Program-made: the position numbers and the translations under genes
Source of the DNA: Trichormus sp. ATA11-4-KO1
Lineage (GTDB): Bacteria > Cyanobacteriota > Cyanobacteriia > Cyanobacteriales > Nostocaceae
DNA length: 25,953 nucleotides
Direction of reading: 5' to 3'
NCBI GenBank assembly: GCA_019358915.1
Contig: JAHHIM010000049.1
Location: 1 to 25,953, forward strand
Shown here: in pieces, positions 3,702-25,873 of the stretch
How positions within the stretch are numbered: position 1 is the first letter of the stretch
How the letters are laid out: every line of letters begins with the position of its first letter
Notes under the pieces: model-generated
Databases searched by the model: none
What the model was told of the DNA's origin: nothing
Seen by the model: the letters and a program-made list of their open reading frames with translations, nothing else

Positions 3702-4059
3702 ACCATCGCTTGGTTGATTCTTAGAGGAAAGTTTAGTTATTGGTTTTTCTTCGTGACTATGCCTTTCAATATAGCCTGAAGATGTTTCAACGCTCTAATC
3801 TCAGCAATTAGATACTGGAAACGAGATTTAAGCGAATGCTTCAATCTATTAAAGAATTACAATTAAAAATAATGGAAAATACATTAGTTGATAAAACCTT
3901 CCGTGACAGCGATGGCAACATTGTCATCGCACAGATGCCAAATCTACCGCTTATTGTTTGGATAGTAACCAGTTTACTTGCTTTAATTTTTCCAACTGGC
4001 AAGATTAATACAGTATTGGATGTAGTAGCAAATGGCTCCTTATTTACTTGGGCGTGGAT

Positions 4060-5547
4060 CAATACGGTTCAGTTAAGCCTCAAAGTCATGTAAATTAAGC
4101 ATTGTTCCCAAGAATGGAAATTAAGTGTGGTGCATCTGAGAGATTTTTCGTTGGTGTGTCCCGATATACAAAATGGTGACTTGCTGAAAGCAATCGAGAT
4201 GGCTATTCCAGCAACGGCAATTGAACAAGCGATGGCGAATACTCAAAGCGAAGAAGAACGCAAGCGGTGTTTACCAGCACAATTGGTGGTAAGCCTTGTA
4301 ATAGTAATGAGTTTGTGGTCAAAAGATTCAATGCGGGATGTACTGAAGAACTTGATTGATGGTTTAAGTGAGGCATGGATTAAGGTTGGGAAATACTGGC
4401 GAATACCTTGTAAGTCAGCCATTACACAAGCCCGACAGCGATTAGGGGCAAGGGTAATGAGCCAATTATTTCATCAATTAATACGACCAATGGCGACACA
4501 GGAGACATTACCCGGATTTCTCAATGGGCTAAGAATTGTAGCCATTGATGGCACTTGTTTCGATGTCCCAGACAGCGATGAAAATGCGAGAGTTTTTGGT
4601 CGTCCTGGCAGTCGTCCTGGGACAGTAGCAGCTTTCCCAAAAGTCAGATTAGTAATCTTAATTGAAGCAGGTACGCACTTAATTTTGGATGCTTTGATGT
4701 GTCCATATCGCATGGGAGAGCGTGTACGAGCGTTAAAGTTGTTACGCTCAGTCACCACAGGAATGTTATTGATGTGGGATAGGGGCTTGCATTCTTATGC
4801 AATGGTACAGGCAACAGTTTCCCAGGGATGTGATTATTTAGGCAGAATACCTGCCAATGTTAAGTTTCTCGTAGAACAACCTCTGAGCGATGGCTCCTAT
4901 TTGTCTAGGATTTACCCATCAGGAAAGCTGCGAAAAAAGGGTTCTCAGCCAATACTAGTACGAGTGATTGAGTATACTATTGAGCATCCAGAAAACCCAA
5001 CTGAACAACTTACATATCGCTTGATTACTAGCTTATTAGATATTGAAAAATTTCCGGCACAGTTGTTAGCTAGAGAATATCATCAGCGTTGGGAAGTAGA
5101 AAATACCATTGATGAATTGAAAATACACCTTTTAGGGCGAAAAACTCACGTTCGTTCCCAAAAACCACGCGAAGTAGTGCAGGAAATATATGGCTGGTTG
5201 TTGGGACATTGGTCAGTAAGGGTGTTAATGTTTCAAGCCGCAACTACTGCCGGGGTTCCACCATTACGTCTGAGTTTTACAGGAGCATTACGGGTCATTC
5301 GTCGTGCTATTCCTAAGTTTCAACGCTTACAGCCAGAAGAATTCCCCCTTTTTTCGATTGGTTAACCATAGAGATTCTGGATACGTTGTTACCCGAACGA
5401 ATTCACCGTACTAACCCCAGGGTTGTGAAAAAACCTGTATCAAAGTTTTGTTCTAAAAAGCCAAAACACAGAGGGACTGGAAAACGAGTAGAAGCTCCGA
5501 AGTTTCACATCACTAATAAGCTTCTTACCCTTAACTGAACCGTATTG
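4060..5547 (+). mobile_element. Complete IS4-family insertion sequence, 1488 bp
   Basis: Perfect 18-bp IRs CAATACGGTTCAGTTAAG (4060-4077) / CTTAACTGAACCGTATTG (5530-5547). 10-bp target duplication GGGCGTGGAT (4050-4059, 5548-5557). Confidence 0.95.
4127..5365 (+). CDS. IS4-family DDE transposase (a -1 frame extension runs to 5538)
   Basis: AIDGT, WDRGL and the YHQRWEVENTIDELK (Y-2-R-3-E-6-K) signature. Confidence 0.93.
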   Translation: MVHLRDFSLVCPDIQNGDLLKAIEMAIPATAIEQAMANTQSEEERKRCLPAQLVVSLVIVMSLWSKDSMRDVLKNLIDGLSEAWIKVGKYWRIPCKSAITQARQRLGARVMSQLFHQLIRPMATQETLPGFLNGLRIVAIDGTCFDVPDSDENARVFGRPGSRPGTVAAFPKVRLVILIEAGTHLILDALMCPYRMGERVRALKLLRSVTTGMLLMWDRGLHSYAMVQATVSQGCDYLGRIPANVKFLVEQPLSDGSYLSRIYPSGKLRKKGSQPILVRVIEYTIEHPENPTEQLTYRLITSLLDIEKFPAQLLAREYHQRWEVENTIDELKIHLLGRKTHVRSQKPREVVQEIYGWLLGHWSVRVLMFQAATTAGVPPLRLSFTGALRVIRRAIPKFQRLQPEEFPLFSIG

Positions 5548-5862
5548 GGGCGTGGATGGAATTATTTCAAGGCGTTAACTATTTTCGCAGGTCATTAGGT
5601 CTTGTTGTATTGATTGGCATTATCGCATCAAAAGTTATCTAGTTTACTATGCTAGAATCGCTTCTGCCACTACATAAATAAAGAAAAATGGTAAAACGTT
5701 AAATTGAGCATTTACCACTTTTCCGAATTAGTTATGGTTTTTGATTATATCCAGAAATATCCCCACCGGACAAAACAAATTTTAGGGATTAGTTACGAAC
5801 AGTTGCAATCACTGTTGAATTGCGCGATAAAACGTCATCTTAAATTTTAGTTTTTTGTCAAC

Positions 5863-7275
5863 TTATTTACGTGTAGTTGTGACTCGTAAAGCTTCTTCAA
5901 AATACTGTCGATATAGCTTACAACTGGATATGACCTGATTTCCTTGCAGCTTGACTAACCCCATGCTGTGTAGCTTAAAGGCTAAAGTCTGTTCTAACTC
6001 TACAGGTGTTGATAAGGCGATCGCTAGTTCATAGGCTGCTGCTAATTGTGGATGTTCTTGTAAGCTGCGTAAATGGCGATGTAAGTGATTACTGTAAATA
6101 CCTGCATCTGTAGCTGCTGTTTCGATTAACTGTTGGAAAGTTAAATCTTGCTGTGCTAAATGATATAAAGCTTGTTGTACTAAATATGGATGTCCATCCA
6201 CAAGCTGCATCAGTTCTGATAACTCGTCTTCAGATAGATTAATTCCATAACACTGGGCTAAATTGAATACTTGCACAGGTGTAAGTGTTTGCAACTCAAT
6301 TGCTAAACCCACGTTAAATGGTGACTTATTAATATCAAGCGGGATATATACTTCTGTGGAATGAACAATAACTAACCGCAGATTTTGCCACAGAGGATTA
6401 CCACTATCTCCATAGGCTGCTTCTTCATACCAAGAGCGCAGTAATGTAAAGAAATCATCCGCAATTTCTGGGTGTAAAAACACCTCATCAACTTGATCTA
6501 AAGCTAATACCAAAACACCATTAATATCTGGCAACAAACAGTCTTCAAAATAAGCAGTGCAATTACTTTTACTGCCAAAAGTTTCACTCCAATAATCCTC
6601 TACACGATAGGGTAGTTGCAGCTTACGAGTAATAGAAGCACAAAACCAACGCAAGAATTTATCTAAATCATTAAAAATAGAACGTTCTGCTCGCTGCAAA
6701 CTCAACGCTACAGTACGCACTTGTGAAGAATTATCTTGTTTAGCATGAGCTAAAATTCTCACCATTAAAGAAGTTTTGCCCATTTGACTTGGTGCTTTGA
6801 TGCGAATCAATGCTCCATCTCTAGTAATTTCTTCGTAACAGCGAGACTCGACTGGAGGACGTTCTATATATAAAGCAGAGTCTAATGGTATGAGTCCAAC
6901 TGGTGATTCTAATTCTAATGATTGGGAATTAATAACTGGCGATTGGGAGTTGACTAATAAGGAAGGTTTTTCAATTTTAAATTCTTCAGATGCTCGTTGT
7001 GCGAGGATAGCCATCAAATTAGTTTTACTGACTTTTTCCCCTAAACTAGCTGAAAGAATCTGCCATAATTTCGGACCTACATCATGTTTGATATACTCAG
7101 GAGCGTAGTCACATTCTTCGGCAATTTTATCATATTTTTGACCTAGCAAAGCTCCTCGTAATACAGCTACTTCAATGTTTTTCAGATGTCTTTTAGTTTT
7201 GGCAAATACTGCGGCATCTGCTATTTTCAAAGCTGCTTCAAATGTGATTGCTGTTTCTTGAATTACTTCCGTCAT
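5863..7275 (-). CDS. N-terminal HTH + AAA-like (AAA_35-type, STAND-like) NTPase
   Basis: HTH-like GQKYDKIAEECDYAPEYIKHDVGPKLW, YIERPP, Walker A APSQMGKTS, Walker B LALDQVD, SPFNVG, GHPYL. Confidence 0.85.
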   Translation of the reverse strand: MTEVIQETAITFEAALKIADAAVFAKTKRHLKNIEVAVLRGALLGQKYDKIAEECDYAPEYIKHDVGPKLWQILSASLGEKVSKTNLMAILAQRASEEFKIEKPSLLVNSQSPVINSQSLELESPVGLIPLDSALYIERPPVESRCYEEITRDGALIRIKAPSQMGKTSLMVRILAHAKQDNSSQVRTVALSLQRAERSIFNDLDKFLRWFCASITRKLQLPYRVEDYWSETFGSKSNCTAYFEDCLLPDINGVLVLALDQVDEVFLHPEIADDFFTLLRSWYEEAAYGDSGNPLWQNLRLVIVHSTEVYIPLDINKSPFNVGLAIELQTLTPVQVFNLAQCYGINLSEDELSELMQLVDGHPYLVQQALYHLAQQDLTFQQLIETAATDAGIYSNHLHRHLRSLQEHPQLAAAYELAIALSTPVELEQTLAFKLHSMGLVKLQGNQVISSCKLYRQYFEEALRVTTTRK

Positions 7276-7332
7276 TTTCTTTAATGTTTATAAATTTATC
7301 TCGATTTTTTTAATAGGTATGTTTTTATTTGT

Positions 7333-8082
7333 TTAACTTGCTTTATCTGCTAATTGTTGTAGGGTTTGAGTGAATGGATGGTCAGGATATTGTAAACAAA
7401 ATATGCCACTACTGCCCAGTTGTGCCATGTCTTCCGAAAGTGGCAATATACCTGCAATTGGAACGTTATAAGTTTTCTCTACTTTTTGCTGTAGTGATGC
7501 AAAATCCATACGATTTGGTGTCTTATTAATGACCATCATCATCTCGCAAACTTGCAGTTGACGAGCAATATTCACTGTTACCGCCGTGCCTTGAAAATCT
7601 TGGTGATCTGGACGAAGGATAATAATTAATAAGTCAGAAATAGCGATAGATAGTAAAGTTTCTCGGCTTAATCCAGGGTGAGTATCAATAAATAAGTAGT
7701 CTAATTCTAACTCTGTAATTAATCTTTGAAAGCCACTATTTAGTAAACTAACTTTGTATCCTTCGCTCAAAATCTTGGCAATTTCATCAGCATTGATACT
7801 AGAGGGTATGAGGAAAATTTTCCCCTGAGAAATTGCTAGATGAGAAGTAACATCACAGGCGGTATCCGCAATACAACTACGATTCCACAAATAGTCATTT
7901 AAGGTTTTACCTGCAATTGTCTTATTAATACCAAATAGAGCATGAATACCCGGAGATTGTAAATCAGTATCTACAATTGCCACTCGCTTCTCTTGAAGTG
8001 CCATTGCGACTGCTAAATTCGCTGTTAAGTTAGATTTACCTGTTCCACCTCGAAAGGAGTGAATCGCAATAATTTTAGACAT
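7333..8082 (-). CDS. MinD/ParA-family ATPase
   Basis: Deviant Walker A HSFRGGTGKS, VAIVDTD, FIDTHPG, INK motif. Confidence 0.9.
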   Translation of the reverse strand: MSKIIAIHSFRGGTGKSNLTANLAVAMALQEKRVAIVDTDLQSPGIHALFGINKTIAGKTLNDYLWNRSCIADTACDVTSHLAISQGKIFLIPSSINADEIAKILSEGYKVSLLNSGFQRLITELELDYLFIDTHPGLSRETLLSIAISDLLIIILRPDHQDFQGTAVTVNIARQLQVCEMMMVINKTPNRMDFASLQQKVEKTYNVPIAGILPLSEDMAQLGSSGIFCLQYPDHPFTQTLQQLADKAS

Positions 8083-8089
8083 AAAATAC

Positions 8090-8108
8090 TAATTCGTAAT
8101 TCGTAATT
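8090..8108. repeat. STRR-type heptamer tandem (TAATTCG)n
   Basis: TAATTCG TAATTCG TAATT. Confidence 0.6.
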
Positions 8109-8544
8109 AAGATATCTTGCTATTGCGAAGCGATTTAACTTCTATTTGCAATTGTTGAAAAGATTCGGTTTGAGTGATTTCTTCTACTTGATGTGCAAGT
8201 TTGTTTAAATCAATCTCTATTTGCATTTCTTGGAGTTGGAGTTTTTTCTCCTTTTCCTGCTGTTGCAATAGGCTTTCTAATTCAGCTTTCCCCTGGTTTA
8301 TAACTGCCAATTTCTGCTGCAAATTTGCAACTTCTGCCCTTAAACTCTCTTCGGTATCTTGTAGGTAAAATTTAGCTTTGTGTTTTACCTTATTCTTCCT
8401 TAACTGCTTCTGGGTTAATCTGGAAGGAAAAGGCATGGAAGCATTATTCTTTATTGCATTCTGGAAAGCAATGAGGTTAATTACATCTGCTGGGACTACT
8501 TTGATACCAAAATTAAGAGGATGTTGGGGCATGATATACTCCAT
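8107..8544 (-). CDS. Hypothetical coiled-coil protein upstream of the MinD-like ATPase
   Basis: 145-aa ORF with Q/E/L heptads, a C-terminal IEIDLNKLAHQVEEITQTESFQQLQ segment, and a 24-bp gap to the next gene. Confidence 0.7.
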   Translation of the reverse strand: MEYIMPQHPLNFGIKVVPADVINLIAFQNAIKNNASMPFPSRLTQKQLRKNKVKHKAKFYLQDTEESLRAEVANLQQKLAVINQGKAELESLLQQQEKEKKLQLQEMQIEIDLNKLAHQVEEITQTESFQQLQIEVKSLRNSKIS

Positions 8545-8693
8545 ATCATCAACGTCTGCGTTGGGAGTGTGCGGATCTTTACTGTTTTAGGATGACGCGA
8601 TCGCCCGACACAATGAAAGATCAGTTTTGTCACGAAGCGGTACTTATAAAACTGGTCTTGACAAAAGAGATTTTTTATGAATAAAAAATCAAT

Positions 8694-16769: not shown

Positions 16770-19700
16770 CTATCTACGACGAATTAAGCCTACGCACAAA
16801 TGACGATCTTCCTCTTTCAAATCTGCACTATTTTGTAAATAATCTCTCACATACTCACAAGCCTGTGCCAACAATTTTTCAGGACTAGAATCAAAGTCTA
16901 AATTCCAGAGAGTAACTTTACCAAGGGAATCTGAGGAAGCCAAAACCTTTCCATCTGGGCTAAAACTCACACTTTTAACCCCAGCATCAAGACCTGAAAG
17001 AGTTTGCAGCACTTCTCCCTGAAGGTTCCACAGCTTGATTGACATATCTTCACTTGCCGTAGCGATCGTTTGTCCATGAGGACTAAAAATCGCTGTATTC
17101 ACCTCGCCTTTATGTCCCCACAGCGTCAATAGTTCTTTACCCTCTCGGTTCCAGAGTTTCACAGTTTTATCTTTACTGGCTGTGATGATCACCTGACTAT
17201 CAGGACTGAAACTCACAGTCTGTATTCCTGCTATGTGTCCTTTAAGAGTTACCAATTCTTTTCCTTGAAAACTCCAGAGTTTAACGGTTCCATCTTCACC
17301 GGCGGTAGCGATGATTTGACCATCAGGGCTAAAACTTACGCTTCTGACACCTGCTTGATGTCCGCGTAAAGTCATAATTTCTTTGCCATCCAGATTCCAC
17401 AGTTTAGCCGTTGTATCCCAACTAGCACTAGCGATTGTTTGACCATCAGGGCTAAAACTTGCACTTCTCACATCTGCTTGATGTCCGCGTAAAGTCACTA
17501 TTTCTTTTCCCAATAAATTCCACAGTTTGACAGTTTTGTCTCGACTGGCGGTAACGACCATTTGACCACTAGGGCTGAATTGGAGGCTTCTTAACGTATC
17601 GCTATGACCACTAAGTGTTAACAGTTCCTTTCCTTGGCGGTTCCAGAGTTTCGCCATTGTGTAACGACCAGTTGTACCAAGAGTTTTACCATCAAGACTA
17701 AAACTGACACTTCCCGCAGCAGCTTCGCCAAGATTGAGAATTAGAGATTGAAATTTTTCCGATTCCTCATGAGCCATATTCCACAATCTCACAGTTCCAT
17801 CTTCGCCACTGCTTGCCACGAGTTGCCCATCTCGACTTAAATTTACACCCCAGACAGCATCTGTATGTCCGTGAAAAATGTGCAATTCCTCGCCTTTGCG
17901 GTTCCAGAGTCGAATTGTTTTATCCCAACTGCTTGTAGCAATGGTTTGACCATCGTGACTGAAGACTGCACTGGCAACTGTATCATTATGACCGTGCAGT
18001 GTCGCCAGTTCCTTACCGTCCAAATCCCAAATTTTTGCAGTTTTGTCTCGACTCGTCGTCACCAAATTCTTACCATCCCGGCTGAAATTAACATACATTA
18101 TCCAATGTTTATGATCTTCCAGGCTCAATAATTCTTTGCCATTCAAATCCCACACCTTTGCCGTACCATCCCGACTGGCGGTAGCAATCATATTTCCCTT
18201 GGGACTGAAATGAATAGCAACAGCCGGGGCTTTATGGGTGGGAAAAGATTTTAACTCCTGCCCTTGTAGGTTCCAGAGTCTCATTGTCCCGTTCCATTCC
18301 ATTGATGCCACTGTCTTGCTATCAGGGCTAAATCCCACACACGCTACCCAATCTTGATGATTTAAGGTGATTAGTTCTTGACCATCTTCCACACGCCAGA
18401 CTTTCACGGTTTTGTCTCGACTAGCACTGACCAACAGCTTACCATCAGGGCTAAAATTAATACTCCAGACTGCATCTGTATGTCCACGCAGAGTTTGAAG
18501 TAACTTACCGTCACGCTGCCAAATTTTTATGGTTTTATCCCAACTGGCACTGGCGAGTTTTTGCCCATCAGGACTAAATTTGACTCTTGTAACTACATCA
18601 CTATGATCCAGCAAACGATTACGTTCGCGCACCCAATAAAGAGATTGACGTAAGTTTTTTTCTACTCGCACCTTTAATTCTGTATCTGCGTTTTCCCATC
18701 CTAGATTGTTTAACTTGATACTAGCCTTTAAACTTTCGATTAAAGCATCAAAGTTATTATGGGACTCAAAAGCTGTTTCTGAAGCCAGAGTTAAAGCTTT
18801 AATCTCACCCAAGCTGACCTGTTGTTTTTGTTGGGCGGTTTGCCATGTTAGTAACCCTGATAAGCCCAAGAGGGTGACGGTTACTAAAGACAGTGCAGAT
18901 AATCCCACCACTCCCCGACGAATCGTTTGTTTAGCTTGCTGTTCCGCATCGAGAAGGATTTGATTAGCCTGTTGCGATGCAATTAGCGCACTCTGTACCT
19001 CACGTTTTTCTAATTCCTCGCTAGCAGCTAAAAACCGATAATCTATGTTACTCAAACTTTTACCCTTAGCCCAAGTTTGGGCATCTTTGAGGGCTTGTCC
19101 TCGCAAGAGATGGGTTTCATCCTGATAATTAGACGCTACCCACTGATTAAGTAAATCTGCGTAGGGACGTAATTTCTTTAATTGCTTTTGTACCCACTCT
19201 ATATTAAAAACTTCTTGATAAATACGATTGTAAACTTGTAATTTACCTTGTTTTTTAACAACTAAACCTGATAGGAGTAACTCAATTTTTTCTGGCGAAT
19301 CATCGGCTGGTACACCACCATTTTGTAATATTTGCAGATATAGTCCTAGTAGCCTGCTAGCCCGTTGTTCATTGCACAGTAACCTGTCGCGGATTGTTCT
19401 TAAATGGGGCGGTTCATCCAGAGAAGCCCAGTTATCGATGATATGCGATCGCACTATAGCAGATACTTGATCGGCGATCGCCTCACTGGTAGTTAATATT
19501 TCCTGCATCAATTTTTTCAAGTAGGGCGATTCTATCCGAGAACAGTTTCCCTGTTGTCCTGTTCCTCCATCCCAATGCTGTGCGACTAATTGGCAGAGTT
19601 TCTGGGTCAGAAACGGCTGACCTCCTGTCCATGCAAGTATTTCTTTCAGTGCAGCCTGGGGATTTTCTACTTTATTTGCTAACCCTATTTCTAATGGTTG

Positions 19701-20333
19701 AACTTCTGCCAAATTGAACCCATTTAATTTAATTGCTCGTCCAATATTAAAAGGTGTGCGAGTTTTATCTGTAATTAAATCTGAAGGTGTGGCTACTCCC
19801 AACAAAGCAAAAGTAAATTGCTTATGGTCGTGACAAGCACGAATCAAAGCAAAAAAGTCATCCGTATTAAATGGTAAGCTAATAGTGCTATCGATTTCAT
19901 CGAAGAAAATTACAATCGGCTGCTGAATTAATTCAGGTAAAACAGATTGCAATAACTCACCCAAGCGACCCACAGGTGAAAAATCTTGTCTTTGGGCTAA
20001 CCAATTGCGGACATTAATTTGAGGTGAAAGCCGGAAACTCCTTACCAGGCGCATGATAATATCTGCATACCACTGGTCGGCTGTGATGTTGCTGTTGCCA
20101 ATTCCAGATAAATCAACCGTCGTGCAAGCAATACCATCTTCTTGCAGTCGTTTAGCCACCTGCACTCGTAAACTGGACTTGCCCATTTGACGACAGTTAA
20201 GGACGTAACAAAACGCACCAGCCCTTAAAGCATTGTAGAGTTCTTCATCAGCCTGCCGTACTACATAGCTGGGTGCATCAATGGGAAGACGACCGCCAAC
20301 ATGATATTCGTAGGTGGAAATCAGCTTCTGCAC
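16770..20333 (-). CDS. AAA-like (AAA_35-type) NTPase - coiled coil - transmembrane helix - 14 WD40 repeats
   Basis: YVVRQAD, Walker [10 protein letters not shown], Walker [52 protein letters not shown] (~18843-18920), 14 WD units. GTG start. Confidence 0.9.
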
Positions 20334-20392
20334 GGGTATTCCTGCCTTTCAAGTCTGAATCGATGCAATGTATCACGCTGTTGACTGTCATA

Positions 20393-20442
20393 TTTATAGA
20401 GGTTTTAGCTGTCACTGTCCATGTAGAAAAGTTAAGGATTTT
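20393..20442 (-). promoter_or_regulatory. Shared-motif promoter D (AAA-TM-WD40 gene)
   Basis: AAAATCCTTAACTTTT-CTACA-TGGACA-N17-TATAAA. Confidence 0.55.
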
Positions 20443-20500
20443 TCCAGAAACACAGGTGTAGGGGTGTGGGGGAGGAAAACTAATAATCGTGAATTCGATG

Positions 20501-20610
20501 AACCTCACCCCAACCCCTCTGTCTTGAAAAGTTCAGTTCGTCGCAGACATTGCCGTAGGCATTGCCGGAAGCCAGCGCTCCGACTTTCGCTCCGATGCAG
20601 AGAGGGGCTA
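20501..20610. repeat. Dispersed repeat (CCTCACCCCAACCCCTCT...AGAGGGG) enclosing a GC-rich insert
   Basis: Complementary arms CCCCTCT (20514-20520) / AGAGGGG (20601-20607) around ~80 nt of GC-rich sequence with a CATTGCCG duplication. Confidence 0.55.
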
Positions 20611-20694
20611 GGTAGTTAACTTTGGGGATGAGAAATTAAACTTTTGAATTTGTTATTTATCAATCTTGCAACAGTTAAGTGATTGATTGGCAAT

Positions 20695-20744
20695 AAATCC
20701 CTTAATTTTTCTATATCGACACTAAATCTTTTGCATTTTATAAA
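20695..20744 (+). promoter_or_regulatory. Shared-motif promoter E (FAAL-NRPS gene)
   Basis: AAATCCCTTAATTTTT-CTATA-TCGACA-N17-TATAAA. Confidence 0.55.
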
Positions 20745-20892
20745 AATAAAAGTTCGACAAACATCCAGAGTAGAAGGTTATGAATATGGCAAGTCAATGA
20801 AATAAAGCAATTCATAATTATCTACTTAATTCCAGTGATTGTTACCTCATAAAGCTCTAAAAACACGCAACAAATAAAGAGGATAAAAGTAT

Positions 20893-21642
20893 ATGAAGAA
20901 ATTTTTTGATAACTTAGTAGAGTTATTGCGCTATAGAGCAGTTAATCAGTCAGAAAAACAAGCCTTCTCATTCTTAGTTAATGGACAGCAAGAGACTGAT
21001 TTTACCTATCAAGAATTAGATTTAAAAGCTAGAGCGATCGCAGTCGCCCTGAAAAATATTACAACCATCGGGGACAGAGTGCTGCTAATTTATCCCCCCG
21101 GATTAGAATTTATCGCTGCCTTCTTTGGCTGTCTATACGCTGGAGTCATTGCAGCCCCAGCTTATCCACCCAGACAAAATAAATCTCTATCTCGCTTGCA
21201 GGCGGTAGTAGCTGATGCACAAGCCACAGTTGCACTTACCACTACAACCGCTTTATCTAACATTGAAGGACAATTAACTAACTTAACTAATTTACAATCT
21301 CTGCATTGGCTAGCTACTGATAACATCAATACTGATTTAGCCAACTCATGGCAACAGCCACAAATCAATAGCAACTCCTTAGCTTTTCTACAATACACCT
21401 CTGGTTCTACCGGGATGCCAAAAGGCGTGATGGTTAGCCACGACAACCTTCTGCACAATTTAGCCTCAATTTATCATTGTTTTGGCCATTCGCCCCATAG
21501 CCAAGGTGTTATTTGGTTGCCTCCTTATCACGATATGGGGTTAATTGGTGGCATTCTCCAGCCTATTTACGGAGGCTTCCCAGTCACACTAATGTCACCA
21601 GTGGATTTTTTGCAAAAGCCTTTTCAATGGTCAATACCTTAG
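20893..21642 (+). pseudogene. Fatty acyl-AMP ligase (FAAL), N-terminal fragment cut by a MITE
   Basis: LAFLQYTSGSTGMPKGVMVSH, WLPPYHDMGLIG. Genuine coding sequence ends at 21631 and the stop lies inside the MITE IR. Confidence 0.9.
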
Positions 21643-21882
21643 CCAATTTACGAGGGTGAGATGATGATGCTTTAACCATTAACTCCCATTTCTCGCTCGG
21701 CTTGGCAAAAACAATCAGCCATAAAAATTCCTTTAAGGTTTCCCACAAGGGTTTTTTAACGTATTGACAGCAGGATAAGGGTTTGGGATGACAAACTACC
21801 TTTTTATCGAAACGCTTATGTATGCTTATTTTTGCCAGTTTTGCCAAAAATTATCAAGGCTCTTATTTTGGCTAAGGTATTG
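21632..21882. mobile_element. 251-bp non-autonomous IS derivative (MITE)
   Basis: Perfect 15-bp IRs CAATACCTTAGCCAA / TTGGCTAAGGTATTG and 6-bp target duplication AATGGT (21626-21631, 21883-21888). Excision restores [25 protein letters not shown]. Confidence 0.92.
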
Positions 21883-23399
21883 AATGGTTAGAAGCAATTT
21901 CTCGCTATAAAGCTACTACCAGTGGAGGTCCCAATTTTGCCTATGACTTATGTGTGCGTAAAATCACACCAGAACAACGAGAAACTCTCGACTTGAGTAG
22001 TTGGGAAGTAGCTTTTAATGGTGCTGAACCAATTCGGGCGGAAACACTAACAAAGTTTGTAGAAACATTTGCACCATGCGGTTTTCGTGCTAGTAGCTTT
22101 TACCCTTGCTATGGCATGGCTGAAACAACCTTAATTATAGCTGGTGGTGTGAAAACCAACCCACCGATGCTAACAAGTATTGATGGCAAAGCATTGTTAG
22201 AAAATCATGTAGCTCCAGCATCTCAAATTAATAATTATACTCAAACCCTAGTGAGTTCTGGTCACAATATAGAACATCATGAGATTGTGATCGTTCATCC
22301 TGAAACATTGCAACATTGTTCTGATGATGAAGTAGGAGAAATTTGGGTTAGAGGTGCAAGTGTCGCTCAAGGATATTGGCAGAAAACTGAAGAAATACAA
22401 GCTACTTTTCGTGCTTATTTAACAGATACCAAAGAAGGGCCATTTCTACGGACTGGTGATTTAGGATTCTTGCAGAATGGAGAATTATTTGTGACTGGGA
22501 GGTTGAAAGATTTAATTATTGTTCGCGGACGGAATTATTATCCCCAGGATATTGAACTGACTATAGAAAAAAGTCATCCCGCACTTAAATCTAGTTCTAG
22601 TGCTGCTTTCTCAGTTGAAATTAATGGACAAGAACAATTAGTAGTTGCTTGTGAGGTAGAACGTCAATATTTACGAAAACTAGATGGTGATGCGATCGCC
22701 AAAAATATTATCCAAGCTGTCGGGGAAGAACATGAACTGCAAGTTCACACTGTATTATTACTAAAAACAGGAAGTATCCCCAAAACCTCTAGCGGTAAAA
22801 TTCGCCGTCGTGCTTGTCGCGCTAGTTTTATAGCTGGAGATTTAAATATTATCTGGGATTGGAGTAAGAATCCTGAAAATAAATCAGAGTTCCGTAATTT
22901 GCTGGCAGAGGTAGATGCTTTAAAGCAGCAAATAAAATGTCAAAAACAGGAGAAGGAAGTAGTAAAAGTATCTCCAGAATTAGAGAATATCCGCGTCAAA
23001 TTACGCAATATTGTAGCGAATTTATTACAGGTAGACTTTGCCGAAGTTGATATTTATCAACCTTTAATAGCAATGGGTGTAGATTCTCTAGTAATGGCTG
23101 AAGCTGCTGAAACTATAGAAAATTTGTTTGGGATTAATATTGAACTACGCCAATTGTTTGAAGATTTAACAACTCTTGATGCTTTGGCTAATTACATCAG
23201 TCAAAATCAATCTTCATCAGCTAATTTAACAGCTTCAATACCAGTTAATCTTACACAAAAAATATCAGAGGAAGAAACTATAGTTCCTCTTTCCGAAGCT
23301 CAAAAACAACTTTGGGTTTTGGCACAAATGGAAGATAATGGTTCGCTGGCTTATAATGTCAGAACTTTGACACCAGACTCAAACCACCTATGCAATTAA
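21883..23399 (+). pseudogene. FAAL C-terminal part + acyl carrier domain + first residues of a condensation domain
   Basis: PCYGMAE, FLRTGDLGF, GRLKDLII, PKTSSGKI, ACP motif MGVDSL, C1 motif PLSEAQKQLW...AYNV, then a frameshift. The ORF track shows 21954-23399. Confidence 0.88.
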
Positions 23400-25873
23400 G
23401 AGAATACATTGAGTGGCAAGAGCAGCAAAGTAACACACCAGAAATGAAACTGCATGAATCCTATTGGTTAGAACGATTTTCAGCTACAGTTCCTATTTTA
23501 GACTTACCGACAGACCGTCCTCATCCACCCATAAAGACTTATAAAGGTAGCAGAATAACTATTCAGCTTGATGCTAATTTATTCCGTCAAGTCAAGAAAT
23601 TTAGTCAAGAAAATAGTTGTACTTTGTTGATGACTCTTTTATCTTTATACACTACTTTACTGCACAGATTAACAGGTCAAGAAGATATTGTAGTTGGCGT
23701 TCCGGCCTCTGGAAGATTTAAAGGGAGTGAAGAACTTGTAGGTTATTGTTCTCACTTATTACCAATTAGAAGTTACATTGATGAAAATGTGACATTTTTA
23801 CAGCATTTGCAAATTACTAAAACTGAATTGTTAAATGCTTACGAACATCAAGATTATCCTTTTGCTAGGTTAATTGAAACACTGAAAACAACCGAAAATA
23901 AAAGTTTATCACCTCTAGTCACAGCAGTATTCAACTTAAACCGACCTTTAGCTGTGCCGCAGATGTTTGGAGTTGAGACAAGTTTATTATCTCAACCTGT
24001 TAGTTTTTTGGATCATGATATTTGTCTTAATGTCAGTGAGATAGACGGTGAATTGATTTTAGATTGTGATTACAATACTGACTTATTTGATGCCAGCACT
24101 ATTAATGGCATACTAGAAATTTTCCAAATATTTTTGGAAAAAACTGTAACTAATCCTGATCAGTTGCTAGCTACTATCCCCCTATTAAACGAATCTCAAC
24201 GCCATCAATTATTGGTAGAATTTAACAAAACTAACAAAGAATATCCTCAAAATAAGTGCATTCATGAATTATTTGCGGAGCAAGTAGAAAAAACACCGGA
24301 TGCGGTTGCTGTTGTATCTGGAGAGCAAAAACTTACTTACCGAGAATTAAATCACCGTGCTAACCAACTAGCGAATTATCTGCAAACACTGGGAGTGAAA
24401 CCAGAAGTATTAGTAGGAATTTGCATTGAATCTTCTTGGGAAATGATGGTGGGAATGTTAGGTATTCTCAAAGCTGGTGGTGCTTATGTACCGCTTGACC
24501 CTAGTTATCCCCAAGAACGCTTGGATTATATTTTGTCTGATTCTCGTGTGTCAGTTTTATTAACGACTGAGAATTTGCTGGCACAATTGCCTACATATGG
24601 AGCCAAAGTTATCTGTTTAGATACACAATGGGAAGCAATTTCTAGTTATAGTCAAGCAAATCTTCAGTCTGATGTGCAGCCCAGCAACCTTGGTTATATA
24701 ATTTACACTTCTGGTTCTACAGGCAAGCCCAAAGGAGTGTTAGTTACACATCAGAATTTAGTAAATCATAGTAGCGCGATCACTCGAAAATTTCACCTCA
24801 CATCCCAAGATAAAGTCCTGCAATTTGCCGCTTTCAGTTTTGATGTTGCGCTCGAAGAAATCTTCCCTTCTTGGTTAAGTGGTGCAACAGTAGTATTACG
24901 CCCCCAACAAATGTTTGCTTCTTTTGCAGACTTTGTAGAATTTATCAACACTCAAGGTTTGACCGTATTAAATTTACCCGCAACATTTTGGCATGAATGG
25001 GTCTTAGATTTAGCTCAATCCCCAGACTTTTTACCAAGGTGTTTACGCTTGGTGGTTGTAGGTAGCGAACAAGTTAGATGGGAACGACTAGCTATTTGGC
25101 AAAAACACATTGGTAATCGTATCAAAATACTCAATGCTTACGGCCCCACCGAAGCCACAATTACAGCCACAATTTATGAACCAGACTTGAGAAAGCTAAA
25201 CAATCAAACTGGTGGTATACCCATCGGTTGTCCTATCGACAATACTCAAGTTTATATTCTTGATCGGAATCTGCAACCAGTACCTGTTGGTGTTGTTGGT
25301 GAATTATACATTGCTGGTGCTGGTGTTGCTAGAGGTTATCTCAACCGTCCTGAATTAACCAAAGAAAAGTTTATTAAAAATCAATTTGGTGATTCCAAAT
25401 TGTATAAAACAGGCGATTTGGCGCGTTACTTAAAGGATGGCAATATTGAATTTATTGGGCGCATTGATAACCAAGTTAAAATTCGCGGTTTCCGAATTGA
25501 ACTAGGAGAAATTGAGTCTATTCTCAATACTTATCCCCAGGTAAAACAAGCAATAGTCATTGCCAGAGAAGATAATCCTGGTAACAAGCGATTAGTAGCT
25601 TATGTAGTTGCTAACACTGATACACTTGATACTCAGCAACTGCACTCTGAACTCAAACAGAAATTACCGAATTATATGCTTCCTAGTGCATTTGTAACCC
25701 TCGATGCACTACCCTTGACTCCTAACGGTAAAGTAGACCGTAAAGCATTACCAGCACCAGATAAAAATACAGTAATAGATGTAGTTTCACCTACAGGACT
25801 TACGCAACTGGCACAAATAGGGGGCAGGGCTGCGCCTTACCTGGTGACAATTCAAATCAAACCAAGCACATAA
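23390..25873 (+). pseudogene. NRPS fragment: C-terminal half of a condensation domain + adenylation domain, no PCP
   Basis: YWL..F..LDLPTDRP, AYEHQDYPF, LTYREL, YTSGSTGKPKG, NAYGPTE, YKTGDL, NGKVDR. No GGxS/DSL PCP motif before the stop. Confidence 0.85.
25794..25840 (+). mobile_element. Terminus of a MITE-like element plus REP-like hairpin truncating the NRPS
   Basis: CAGGACTTACGCAACTGGCACA resembles a common cyanobacterial AGGACTTACGCA element end (from memory). It is followed by the palindrome TAGGGGGCAGGGCTGCGCCTTAC. The other end was not seen in the window. Confidence 0.6.

Follow-up and report, generated by a model that had tools for sequence, protein, structure and literature searches.

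Paired AAA_35 ATPases and a shared promoter box as a candidate kinase-free signalling system in a cyanobacterium

Several described systems resemble parts of the one presented here. The Escherichia coli STAND activator MalT is sequestered by MalK (PMC10305011; this paper and those cited below are used as far as their text was accessible). In nSTAND2 systems (Kaur et al. 2021, PMC8195603) each operon encodes two STAND-like nucleoside triphosphatases (NTPases), predicted to form a hetero-multimer with the effector on the one whose NTP motifs are eroded. Here we analyse two AAA_35-type NTPases, proteins A and B, encoded on contig C49 (JAHHIM010000049.1) of the 5.97-Mb genome of Trichormus sp. ATA11-4-KO1; the whole contig, 25,953 nucleotides (nt) long, is called the window. 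As in MalT–MalK/MalFGK2, a helix-turn-helix (HTH) STAND-type ATPase would drive a regulon under membrane control by an ATPase whose gene it activates (PMC10305011), and as in nSTAND2 the STAND-like NTPases are paired, the degenerate one bearing the output (PMC8195603). By analogy, the A/B system would act like MalT working with a partner in the membrane, or like an nSTAND2 pair whose output is transcription, and it appears to belong to neither. We give an even chance to a kinase-free relay in which A, bound to a DNA box, activates the boxed genes once a signal turns on the membrane ATPase B, its predicted docking partner. The two proteins are:

5863 to 7275, minus strand: protein A, 470 residues; N-terminal HTH (residues about 10 to 100), linker, A-type AAA_35 STAND-like NTPase.
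16770 to 20333, minus strand: protein B, 1187 residues; B-type AAA_35 NTPase, helical linker, transmembrane (TM) helix at residues 474–497, 14 WD40 repeats, C-terminal cysteine pair.

A sequence-only reading of the window had described A as soluble, with an N-terminal HTH and an AAA_35 ATPase, and B as the same type of ATPase followed by a TM helix and 14 WD40 repeats. Both architectures were confirmed, that of A by the Pfam scan, the structural model and Atlas clusters. AAA_35 (PF14516, curated cut-off 27 bits) matched A with 490 bits over residues 125–461 and B with 88 bits, and the ATPase motifs quoted for the two are present. The model of A starts with a four-helix domain (about 100 helical residues), continues through a low-confidence linker and ends in the NTPase. 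HTH_VMAP-M9 (PF26355) was found on the best Atlas clusters for A (feature score 0.93, 212 of 256 features), while the Pfam scan gave no such match. B has one hydrophobic segment (residues 474–497, Kyte–Doolittle value 1.92) and 14 tryptophan-anchored repeats spaced by about 41 residues, of which Pfam counts 13.

The modelled NTPase of A has the STAND order, in which helical and winged-helix domains come after a P-loop core. Its best fold matches were the archaeal ATPases PAB2304 (2qen; Z 21.0, root-mean-square deviation 4.2, 309 residues aligned) and SSO1545 (2fna; Z 19.8), which we take to be STAND NTPases of the MNS clade. Further matches were NLRs (Z about 17), MalT (8bob, Z 14.9) and Orc1/Cdc6; this fold search has no bearing on the HTH domain. 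The tripartite STAND chain is found in neither protein, A consisting of effector and NTPase only, and B of NTPase, TM helix and repeats only. MalT contains a sensor and ends in a LuxR HTH, whereas A shows nothing of this MalT/LAL layout with its internal TPR-like sensor: its HTH is N-terminal and it has no sensor region. MalK is an ABC ATPase unrelated to MalT, whereas B is a paralogue of A and brings along TM and sensor domains. By description, nSTAND2 is another family, near CR-ATPase/DAP3/RNA12 and with GT4 or HEPN effectors (PMC8195603). Neither the Pfam scan nor the model gave a GT4 or HEPN effector on A, which carries an HTH only, and the nSTAND2 family was absent among the Pfam matches listed for A or B, the Pfam scan being the only search concerned. 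A also differs from the eroded nSTAND2 subunit in that its Walker A motif is largely kept. AAA_35 A/B genes match the two-gene trait of nSTAND2, the adjacency of two STAND genes being seen family-wide (32 of 66) and the erosion of NTP motifs in the A orthologues (Walker B glutamate lost in 57 of 57). The accessible text of PMC8195603 makes no mention of a TM receptor, an HTH or a regulon for nSTAND2. No histidine kinase or receiver domain was found in A or in residues 1–470 of B, and the best 25 of the 61 families matching full-length B were all propellers.

The box is a non-palindromic sequence of 25 bases with the consensus AAAnTCCTTAACTTTTCTGTATCGAC, taken from 118 sites outside the source genome. 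With the final matrix, made from these 118 sites (near-identical relatives included), five sites in the 5.97-Mb source genome scored 25.5–39.8 and the next-best site 14.1. All five lie in the window and are oriented like the gene that follows them. The best site of the genome (39.8; 20415–20444, minus strand) precedes B, in agreement with the earlier statement that the gene of the membrane protein itself carries the box; the other four scored from 36.0 down to 25.5. Column-shuffled controls of the first matrix, which had three window sites among its input, gave 0–1 matches above 20. The five candidate boxed promoters are:

20393 to 20442, minus strand: box, 17-nt spacer and TATAAA before B (putative autoregulatory site).
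20695 to 20744, plus strand: box, 17-nt spacer and TATAAA before the FAAL/nonribosomal peptide synthetase (NRPS) gene, divergent from the B promoter.
16594 to 16643, minus strand: box, 17-nt spacer and TATAAA before the spondin-domain gene.
15459 to 15508, minus strand: box, 17-nt spacer and TATCGT before the DUF4278 gene.
15167 to 15217, minus strand: box, 18-nt spacer and TATAAC before the MACPF gene.

Among 70 non-redundant sites, the distance from TCGACn to TATAA (at least 4 of 5 bases matching) is 17 nt in 53, 18 nt in 8 and never 16 nt, and the sixth base of the −10-like hexamer is T in just 6. The 22 RNA runs listed each held at most a 0.05 share of the sequence words of the region. Twenty conserved bases abut the −35-like end of the box, a spacer of ordinary length and a weak −10 come next, and the box spans −55 to −31 relative to a putative sigma70 promoter. 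The layout suggests a class II activator-dependent sigma70 promoter, and the candidate promoters would need an activator because the −10 lacks its final T in 64 of 70 sites. MalT boxes are asymmetric and adjoin the −35 element. A look-alike at 5630 was rejected as a box, since it lacks the ATCGAC half and is absent among the matrix matches. The box was also rejected as an RNA element: Rfam gave no match in the window, and the fixed spacing to the −10 places the box upstream of the predicted start. A phylum-wide exact search, in a sample of mostly small genomes and used just for finding sites, retrieved the box in 8 of 251 genomes.

We then compared the distributions of A, B and the box in 200 genomes of the same family, drawn irrespective of these genes. 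Orthologues of A were called at E ≤1.1e-33, at a visible gap that excludes two matches of 58–61%, both boxless. At least three boxes occurred in all 33 genomes with an orthologue of A including its HTH, against 1 of the 167 without; the reversed box pattern reached three in 1 of the 200. The 33 A-positive genomes cover 18 genera and are patchily distributed within them. In a second set, the genomes of 50 of the 80 loci with relatives of A, at least one box was present in 47 of 48 A-clade genomes and in neither of the two sister-clade genomes; the two sets overlap, and kin genomes are not independent. B orthologues were detected in 40 of these 48 at E<1e-150, and three more genomes have a lower-scoring one beside A. 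In a comparison of 40 relatives, A, B and at least four boxes coincide in the same four. Of 43 B orthologues, 34 have a box at a distance of 450 nt or less, but none of 41 B paralogues and none of 54 A orthologues does; the A gene of the window has no box either. Boxes distant from A occur in G054, G312 and G363.

The predicted recognition helix of A follows the box as well. The long HTH helix PEYIKHDVGPKLW is identical in 53 of the 57 members of the box clade (SH-like approximate likelihood ratio support 99, in a quick tree of 87 rows), and differs in the boxless sister clade and in all paralogues inspected. Column conservation in A is 0.96 in this helix and 0.83 in the NTPase. It is thus likely, from these sequence patterns, that A binds the box, and A is the likeliest candidate for this role, the neighbouring XRE-NB-ARC protein tracking the box less closely. 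The alternative, that the box is read by this XRE-NB-ARC-WD40 neighbour or by an alternative sigma factor, and that A tracks it through a shared island, seems improbable to us. In its favour, 32 of 57 loci have the XRE-NB-ARC gene next to A, the TCGAC end of the box is −35-like and one genome (G008) is boxed without A. Yet no NB-ARC orthologue was found at E<1e-160 in 14 of the 48 A genomes. Two of these have a lower-scoring adjacent copy; the remaining 12, several of them incomplete assemblies, are all boxed. The single-contig genome G054 has A, B and three scattered boxes, with no match over the XRE part. A foreign reader also fits poorly with the co-variation of A's recognition helix and the box, and with 20 conserved bases above the −35, a longer stretch than sigma region 4 reads.

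Direct contact between A and B is predicted, and we regard it as probable. The modelled heterodimer of the two ATPase domains scored 0.75 against 0.00 for the best control, with runs agreeing at 77% or more and a predicted local distance difference test (pLDDT) of at least 85. In the calibration, 116 of 157 solved pairs and 2 of 215 mismatched pairs attained the score mark, counts that hold roughly for A:B given that alignments were self-supplied and ATP was included. Sequence searches found no relative of either ATPase domain among solved structures. In the model, B and A form a head-to-tail dimer in which a face of A with the invariant R280 covers the nucleotide site of B. The interface comprises residues 13–18, 53–99 and 296–316 of B, around the nucleotide site, and residues 230–244, 274–293 (with R280), 314–327 and 428–448 of A. 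A may therefore donate an arginine finger to B. The model agrees with the ATPase hetero-oligomerisation proposed from the sequence alone.

The two ATPases had been described as one type. They do belong to one family, but they are not equivalent, as A lost catalytic residues that B keeps. B has intact Walker A and B motifs (RQMGKSS, DEID), and its D145, E146, D148, R48 and R317 are invariant across 85 sequences. In A, Walker B is degenerate (DQVD). The Walker B glutamate is replaced in all 57 box-clade A orthologues, whereas 25 of 29 other A-types retain it, and a histidine replaces the arginine of a late HLR-type motif, again in 57 of 57. The GxP motif after the core is GHP in A (G361 and H362 invariant) and GQP in B (G238–P240 invariant). 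Profile alignment of A against B (probability 99.7, E 3.9e-26, 24% identity) indicates distant paralogues of two subtypes rather than near copies.

These subtypes are paired across the family. In five genomes, PF14516 gave 136 matches: 66 A-type, 69 B-type and one 74-residue fragment that was left out. The score separates them, A-types being mostly above 360 bits and B-types between 79 and 137. A same-strand B-type lies at most 1.5 kb downstream of 32 of the 66 A-types, against 0.08 expected, and the reverse order occurs three times; three open frames that appear to combine an A-type and a B-type are counted among the pairings. Together with the presence of the box in A-positive genomes, this order bears out the joint occurrence of A, B and box that the sequence-only reading had anticipated. 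In the window, the two genes are 9.5 kb apart and in separate operons. It is very doubtful that A works by itself as a one-component activator and that B belongs to the system just as a target, the two exchanging no physical signal. The A–B distance is 8–46 kb in most assemblies and 0.9 Mb in G054, and some A-types have no B neighbour, as this would imply, but the family-wide order, the fusions, the dimer model and the complementary catalytic residues speak for partnership. In the conserved paralogous pair of loci L060–L080, an HTH–TIR–AAA_35 protein comes first and a B-type NTPase with GAF domains second (Pfam scan of L060 only).

The B rows of our alignment contain the TM helix in 42 of 46 cases, two rows being cut by the end of the locus, and lysine and arginine are richer on its N-terminal side in 38 of these 42, as the positive-inside pattern has it. 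The C-terminal cysteine pair is present in all 16 full-length WD40 forms. B has 3 cysteines after the TM helix; the last 634 residues of the NB-ARC-WD40 protein contain 28. Charge and cysteines hint at an N-in/C-out topology with an outward-facing propeller. That the WD40 propeller is the input in this strain is, in our view, a little better than evenly supported.

The relay would proceed as follows. A would bind the 25-bp box upstream of a sigma70-type promoter. A signal, in this strain probably received through outward-facing WD40 propellers, would switch on B, the predicted docking partner of A's ATPase domain, and A would then raise transcription from the boxed promoters. B would be the catalytic switch and A a hydrolysis-dead partner that gives the arginine finger and carries the output, and their co-oligomerisation may cluster the HTHs on the box. 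B's own boxed promoter would create feedback. We moderately favour B activating A over B sequestering it. Paralogous A-types bear TIR or GGDEF-like outputs, which would need oligomerisation, and these proteins as well as the A/B fusions favour activation by assembly.

The opposite arrangement, in the manner of MalK and MalT, would have B tether A at the membrane and keep it off until a signal frees it, and B's boxed promoter would then provide negative feedback. We judge this rather unlikely, although it accommodates a good part of the data: the dimer model fits it equally, sensor-less membrane-anchored B orthologues suit a tether, and a hydrolysis-dead STAND protein would be expected, as with MalT, to lean towards being constitutively on. 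Also, the box marks the gene of B but not that of A, as for malK and malT in the accessible text of PMC10305011. Its weaknesses are that the fusions and the TIR or GGDEF-like A-types better match activation by assembly, and that B keeps a full catalytic site, needless for a mere tether.

The sequence-only reading had B sense a ligand through an extracytoplasmic double propeller and signal by ATPase assembly to A. Co-occurrence, pairing, fusions and the heterodimer model favour the ATPase-pair part; the double propeller did not hold up as a general sensor. Several observations count against the relay or some part of it. Six B orthologues stop just after the TM helix and have no extracytoplasmic domain, one has no TM helix and one is a soluble PAS fusion. 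WD40 sensing is hence not universal, and the existence of these forms suggests that the conserved core is an NTPase pair with exchangeable inputs. The complex test does not separate cognate from cousin pairs, its alignments and ligand lie outside the calibration, and the fold of A resembles solved Orc1/Cdc6 and NLR oligomers. No box lies within 450 nt of 9 of 43 B orthologues, 3–4 of which are boxed further up, before a small gene. A and most boxes share one mobile island, plasmid-borne in NZ_CP091914.1, so that part of their co-occurrence is physical linkage. G008 (550 contigs) has three boxes and no A orthologue was found in it. Finally, a B at a distance of 10 kb or less is missing for 26 of the 66 A-types, some of which sit on short contigs, and the third AAA_35 protein of the source genome, an A-type on contig C55, lacks a B-type neighbour.

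The exchangeable inputs bear on a further alternative, to which we assign low probability: A and B would cooperate, but the input would be cytoplasmic, from the NB-ARC-WD40 protein or from PAS proteins acting through a coiled-coil tail and MinD, and the propeller of B would be dispensable or a scaffold. Genes for PAS-PAS-tail proteins and MinD follow short B genes in L158 and L159 and lie beside one in L156. The B of L166 (3981–7208) forms one protein with two PAS domains and the coiled-coil tail, with MinD directly after, an arrangement that links the MinD and tail genes to the system; 39 of 57 loci have MinD close to A. Most B orthologues, all close ones included, have nonetheless kept TM and WD40, and L043, L045 and L165 have A with a B-WD40 and neither a MinD nor an NB-ARC gene nearby.

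Like two-component systems, these pairs have a split into sensor–transmitter and receiver–output, a conserved gene order and an autoregulated sensor gene, and their inputs (WD40, GAF, PAS) and outputs (HTH, TIR, GGDEF-like) vary. Unlike them, A and B contain no kinase or receiver, and they would be coupled by hetero-assembly of NTPases instead of phosphotransfer. A division of sensor and executor over related NTPases is known from paired NLRs and Orc1/Orc4-type hetero-oligomers, and an inactive subunit may give the arginine finger; these systems are soluble, with cell-death or replication outputs, whereas A/B would run from a membrane receptor to a bacterial promoter. The Synechocystis protein Hat reportedly has an N-terminal domain, a hydrophobic linker and WD40 repeats. 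Like B, it is a cyanobacterial WD-repeat regulator, the comparison being by description only. It is linked to inorganic carbon uptake and has a regulatory phenotype, and no partner or box of Hat is mentioned in the accessible text (PMC4057619, PMC2951903). AAA_35 has been found fused to sigma factors (PMC11119718), and PMC8195603 names a family Npun2340/2341. The literature searched gave no function, site or regulon for this family. We take Npun2340 and Npun2341, of the MNS clade of STAND NTPases, to be a tandem cyanobacterial pair and a possible counterpart of AAA_35 A/B.

We found no description of the A/B pair, the box or the regulon in the literature searched, which did not extend to supplements, Leipe et al. 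2004 or Hisbergues et al. 2001. They do not appear in the accessible text of PMC8195603, PMC7159879, PMC10907252, PMC11119718, PMC10305011, PMC4057619, PMC2951903 and PMC5587647; such architectures may be included in the source data of PMC8195603 and PMC7159879. AAA_35 proteins are plentiful in multicellular cyanobacteria, with A-types and B-types each numbering up to about 18 per genome, and no function for them was found in that literature. Tentatively, and with somewhat less than even confidence, AAA_35 A/B pairs may form a separate signalling class, a split STAND 'two-component' system of catalytic receptor NTPase and pseudo-NTPase with swappable sensors and outputs, of which this member would be an innate-immunity-like surface receptor driving a defence regulon through the box. 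If so, this regulon would comprise a pore-forming protein, lipopeptide synthetases and exporters, and surface proteins. The locus combines a regulator and its partner with a predicted interface, a DNA site and a list of targets, and one reporter experiment could thus address whether paired, NLR-like ATPases signal from membrane to promoter independently of phosphorylation. The box also flags NRPS and exporter genes, probably induced by one common signal, and gives a handle on silent natural-product clusters of cyanobacteria.

The boxed targets and the neighbouring genes in the window are:

13761 to 15116, minus strand: MACPF (pore-forming family) domain protein (PF01823), boxed; also boxed in L011 and L025.
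15238 to 15420, minus strand: DUF4278 protein of 60 residues (PF14105, 47 bits), boxed; the commonest boxed target after B (28 of 145 sites).
15674 to 16561, minus strand: secreted spondin-domain protein (NF038123), boxed; PEP-CTERM-like tail read from the sequence.
20893 to 25873, plus strand: FAAL-ACP-C-A NRPS, boxed; reaches the contig end.
7333 to 8082, minus strand: MinD/ParA-like ATPase, an unboxed accessory gene located upstream of A; 39 of 57 loci have it at most 10 kb from A.
8107 to 8544, minus strand: coiled-coil protein of 145 residues; the tail recurs on PAS proteins beside B and is fused to B in L166.
8694 to 9593, minus strand: PNPOx-family flavoprotein, unboxed accessory.
9845 to 13669, plus strand: XRE-like HTH–NB-ARC–14×WD40 protein, unboxed and tripartite; start probably near 9962; in 32 of 57 loci.

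The genes that follow 145 box sites encode B (32), DUF4278 proteins (28), CSLREA-type secreted proteins (12), a short lipoprotein-like peptide (11) and an exporter-like protein (10), with NRPSs, spondin, MACPF and RTX/cadherin proteins as minor groups. These counts are not a census, because the presence of A, B or boxes guided the choice of loci, and several labels were read from sequence starts rather than from domain scans. The output probably consists of secreted, surface and peptide-synthesis or export genes, for defence or competition. In the window, the NRPS is interrupted by a 252-bp mobile element (21631–21882) and a deletion of about 390 bp near 23355. The element resembles a miniature inverted-repeat transposable element, has 24-bp terminal inverted repeats and occurs in further copies on C1, C2, C28, C65 and C71.

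Other loci show further arrangements. L003 and L013 carry a boxed exporter-like gene and a divergent boxed gene for a 59-residue lipoprotein-like product, a second regulated cluster, and in L003 and L006–L010 a gene of about 2,400 residues lies downstream of A. In G008, good-scoring boxes precede NRPS genes (L170, L171). The box at L183:4118 is 117 nt before a gene whose start may resemble contractile-injection tail-sheath proteins. Two identical box variants with a CTGAAC core (L173:3244 and 4420) lie in a polysaccharide-type cluster of G040, a genome with paralogous A-types only.

The best relatives of A are in Nostocales cyanobacteria. Part of plasmid NZ_CP091914.1 is syntenic with most of 5876–25794 at about 90–98% identity, with 13660–15619 (the MACPF/DUF4278 region) unmatched, and this synteny indicates that the module is mobile. 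Several insertion sequence ends flank it. An IS4-family transposase is encoded at 4127–5551, and an inverted repeat near 5536–5551 matches those at 647–662 and 4059–4084. An unboxed glycosyltransferase of the MGT family (macrolide-type; 741–2030) is close to the island. The source genome has three AAA_35-type NTPases only, A, B and the A-type protein on C55. As the only B is that of the window, cross-talk between it and the C55 protein is possible. The latter (321533–323536 on C55; G000) combines an A-type HTH–AAA_35 architecture with a GGDEF-like tail, and its Walker B is altered (NEVD).

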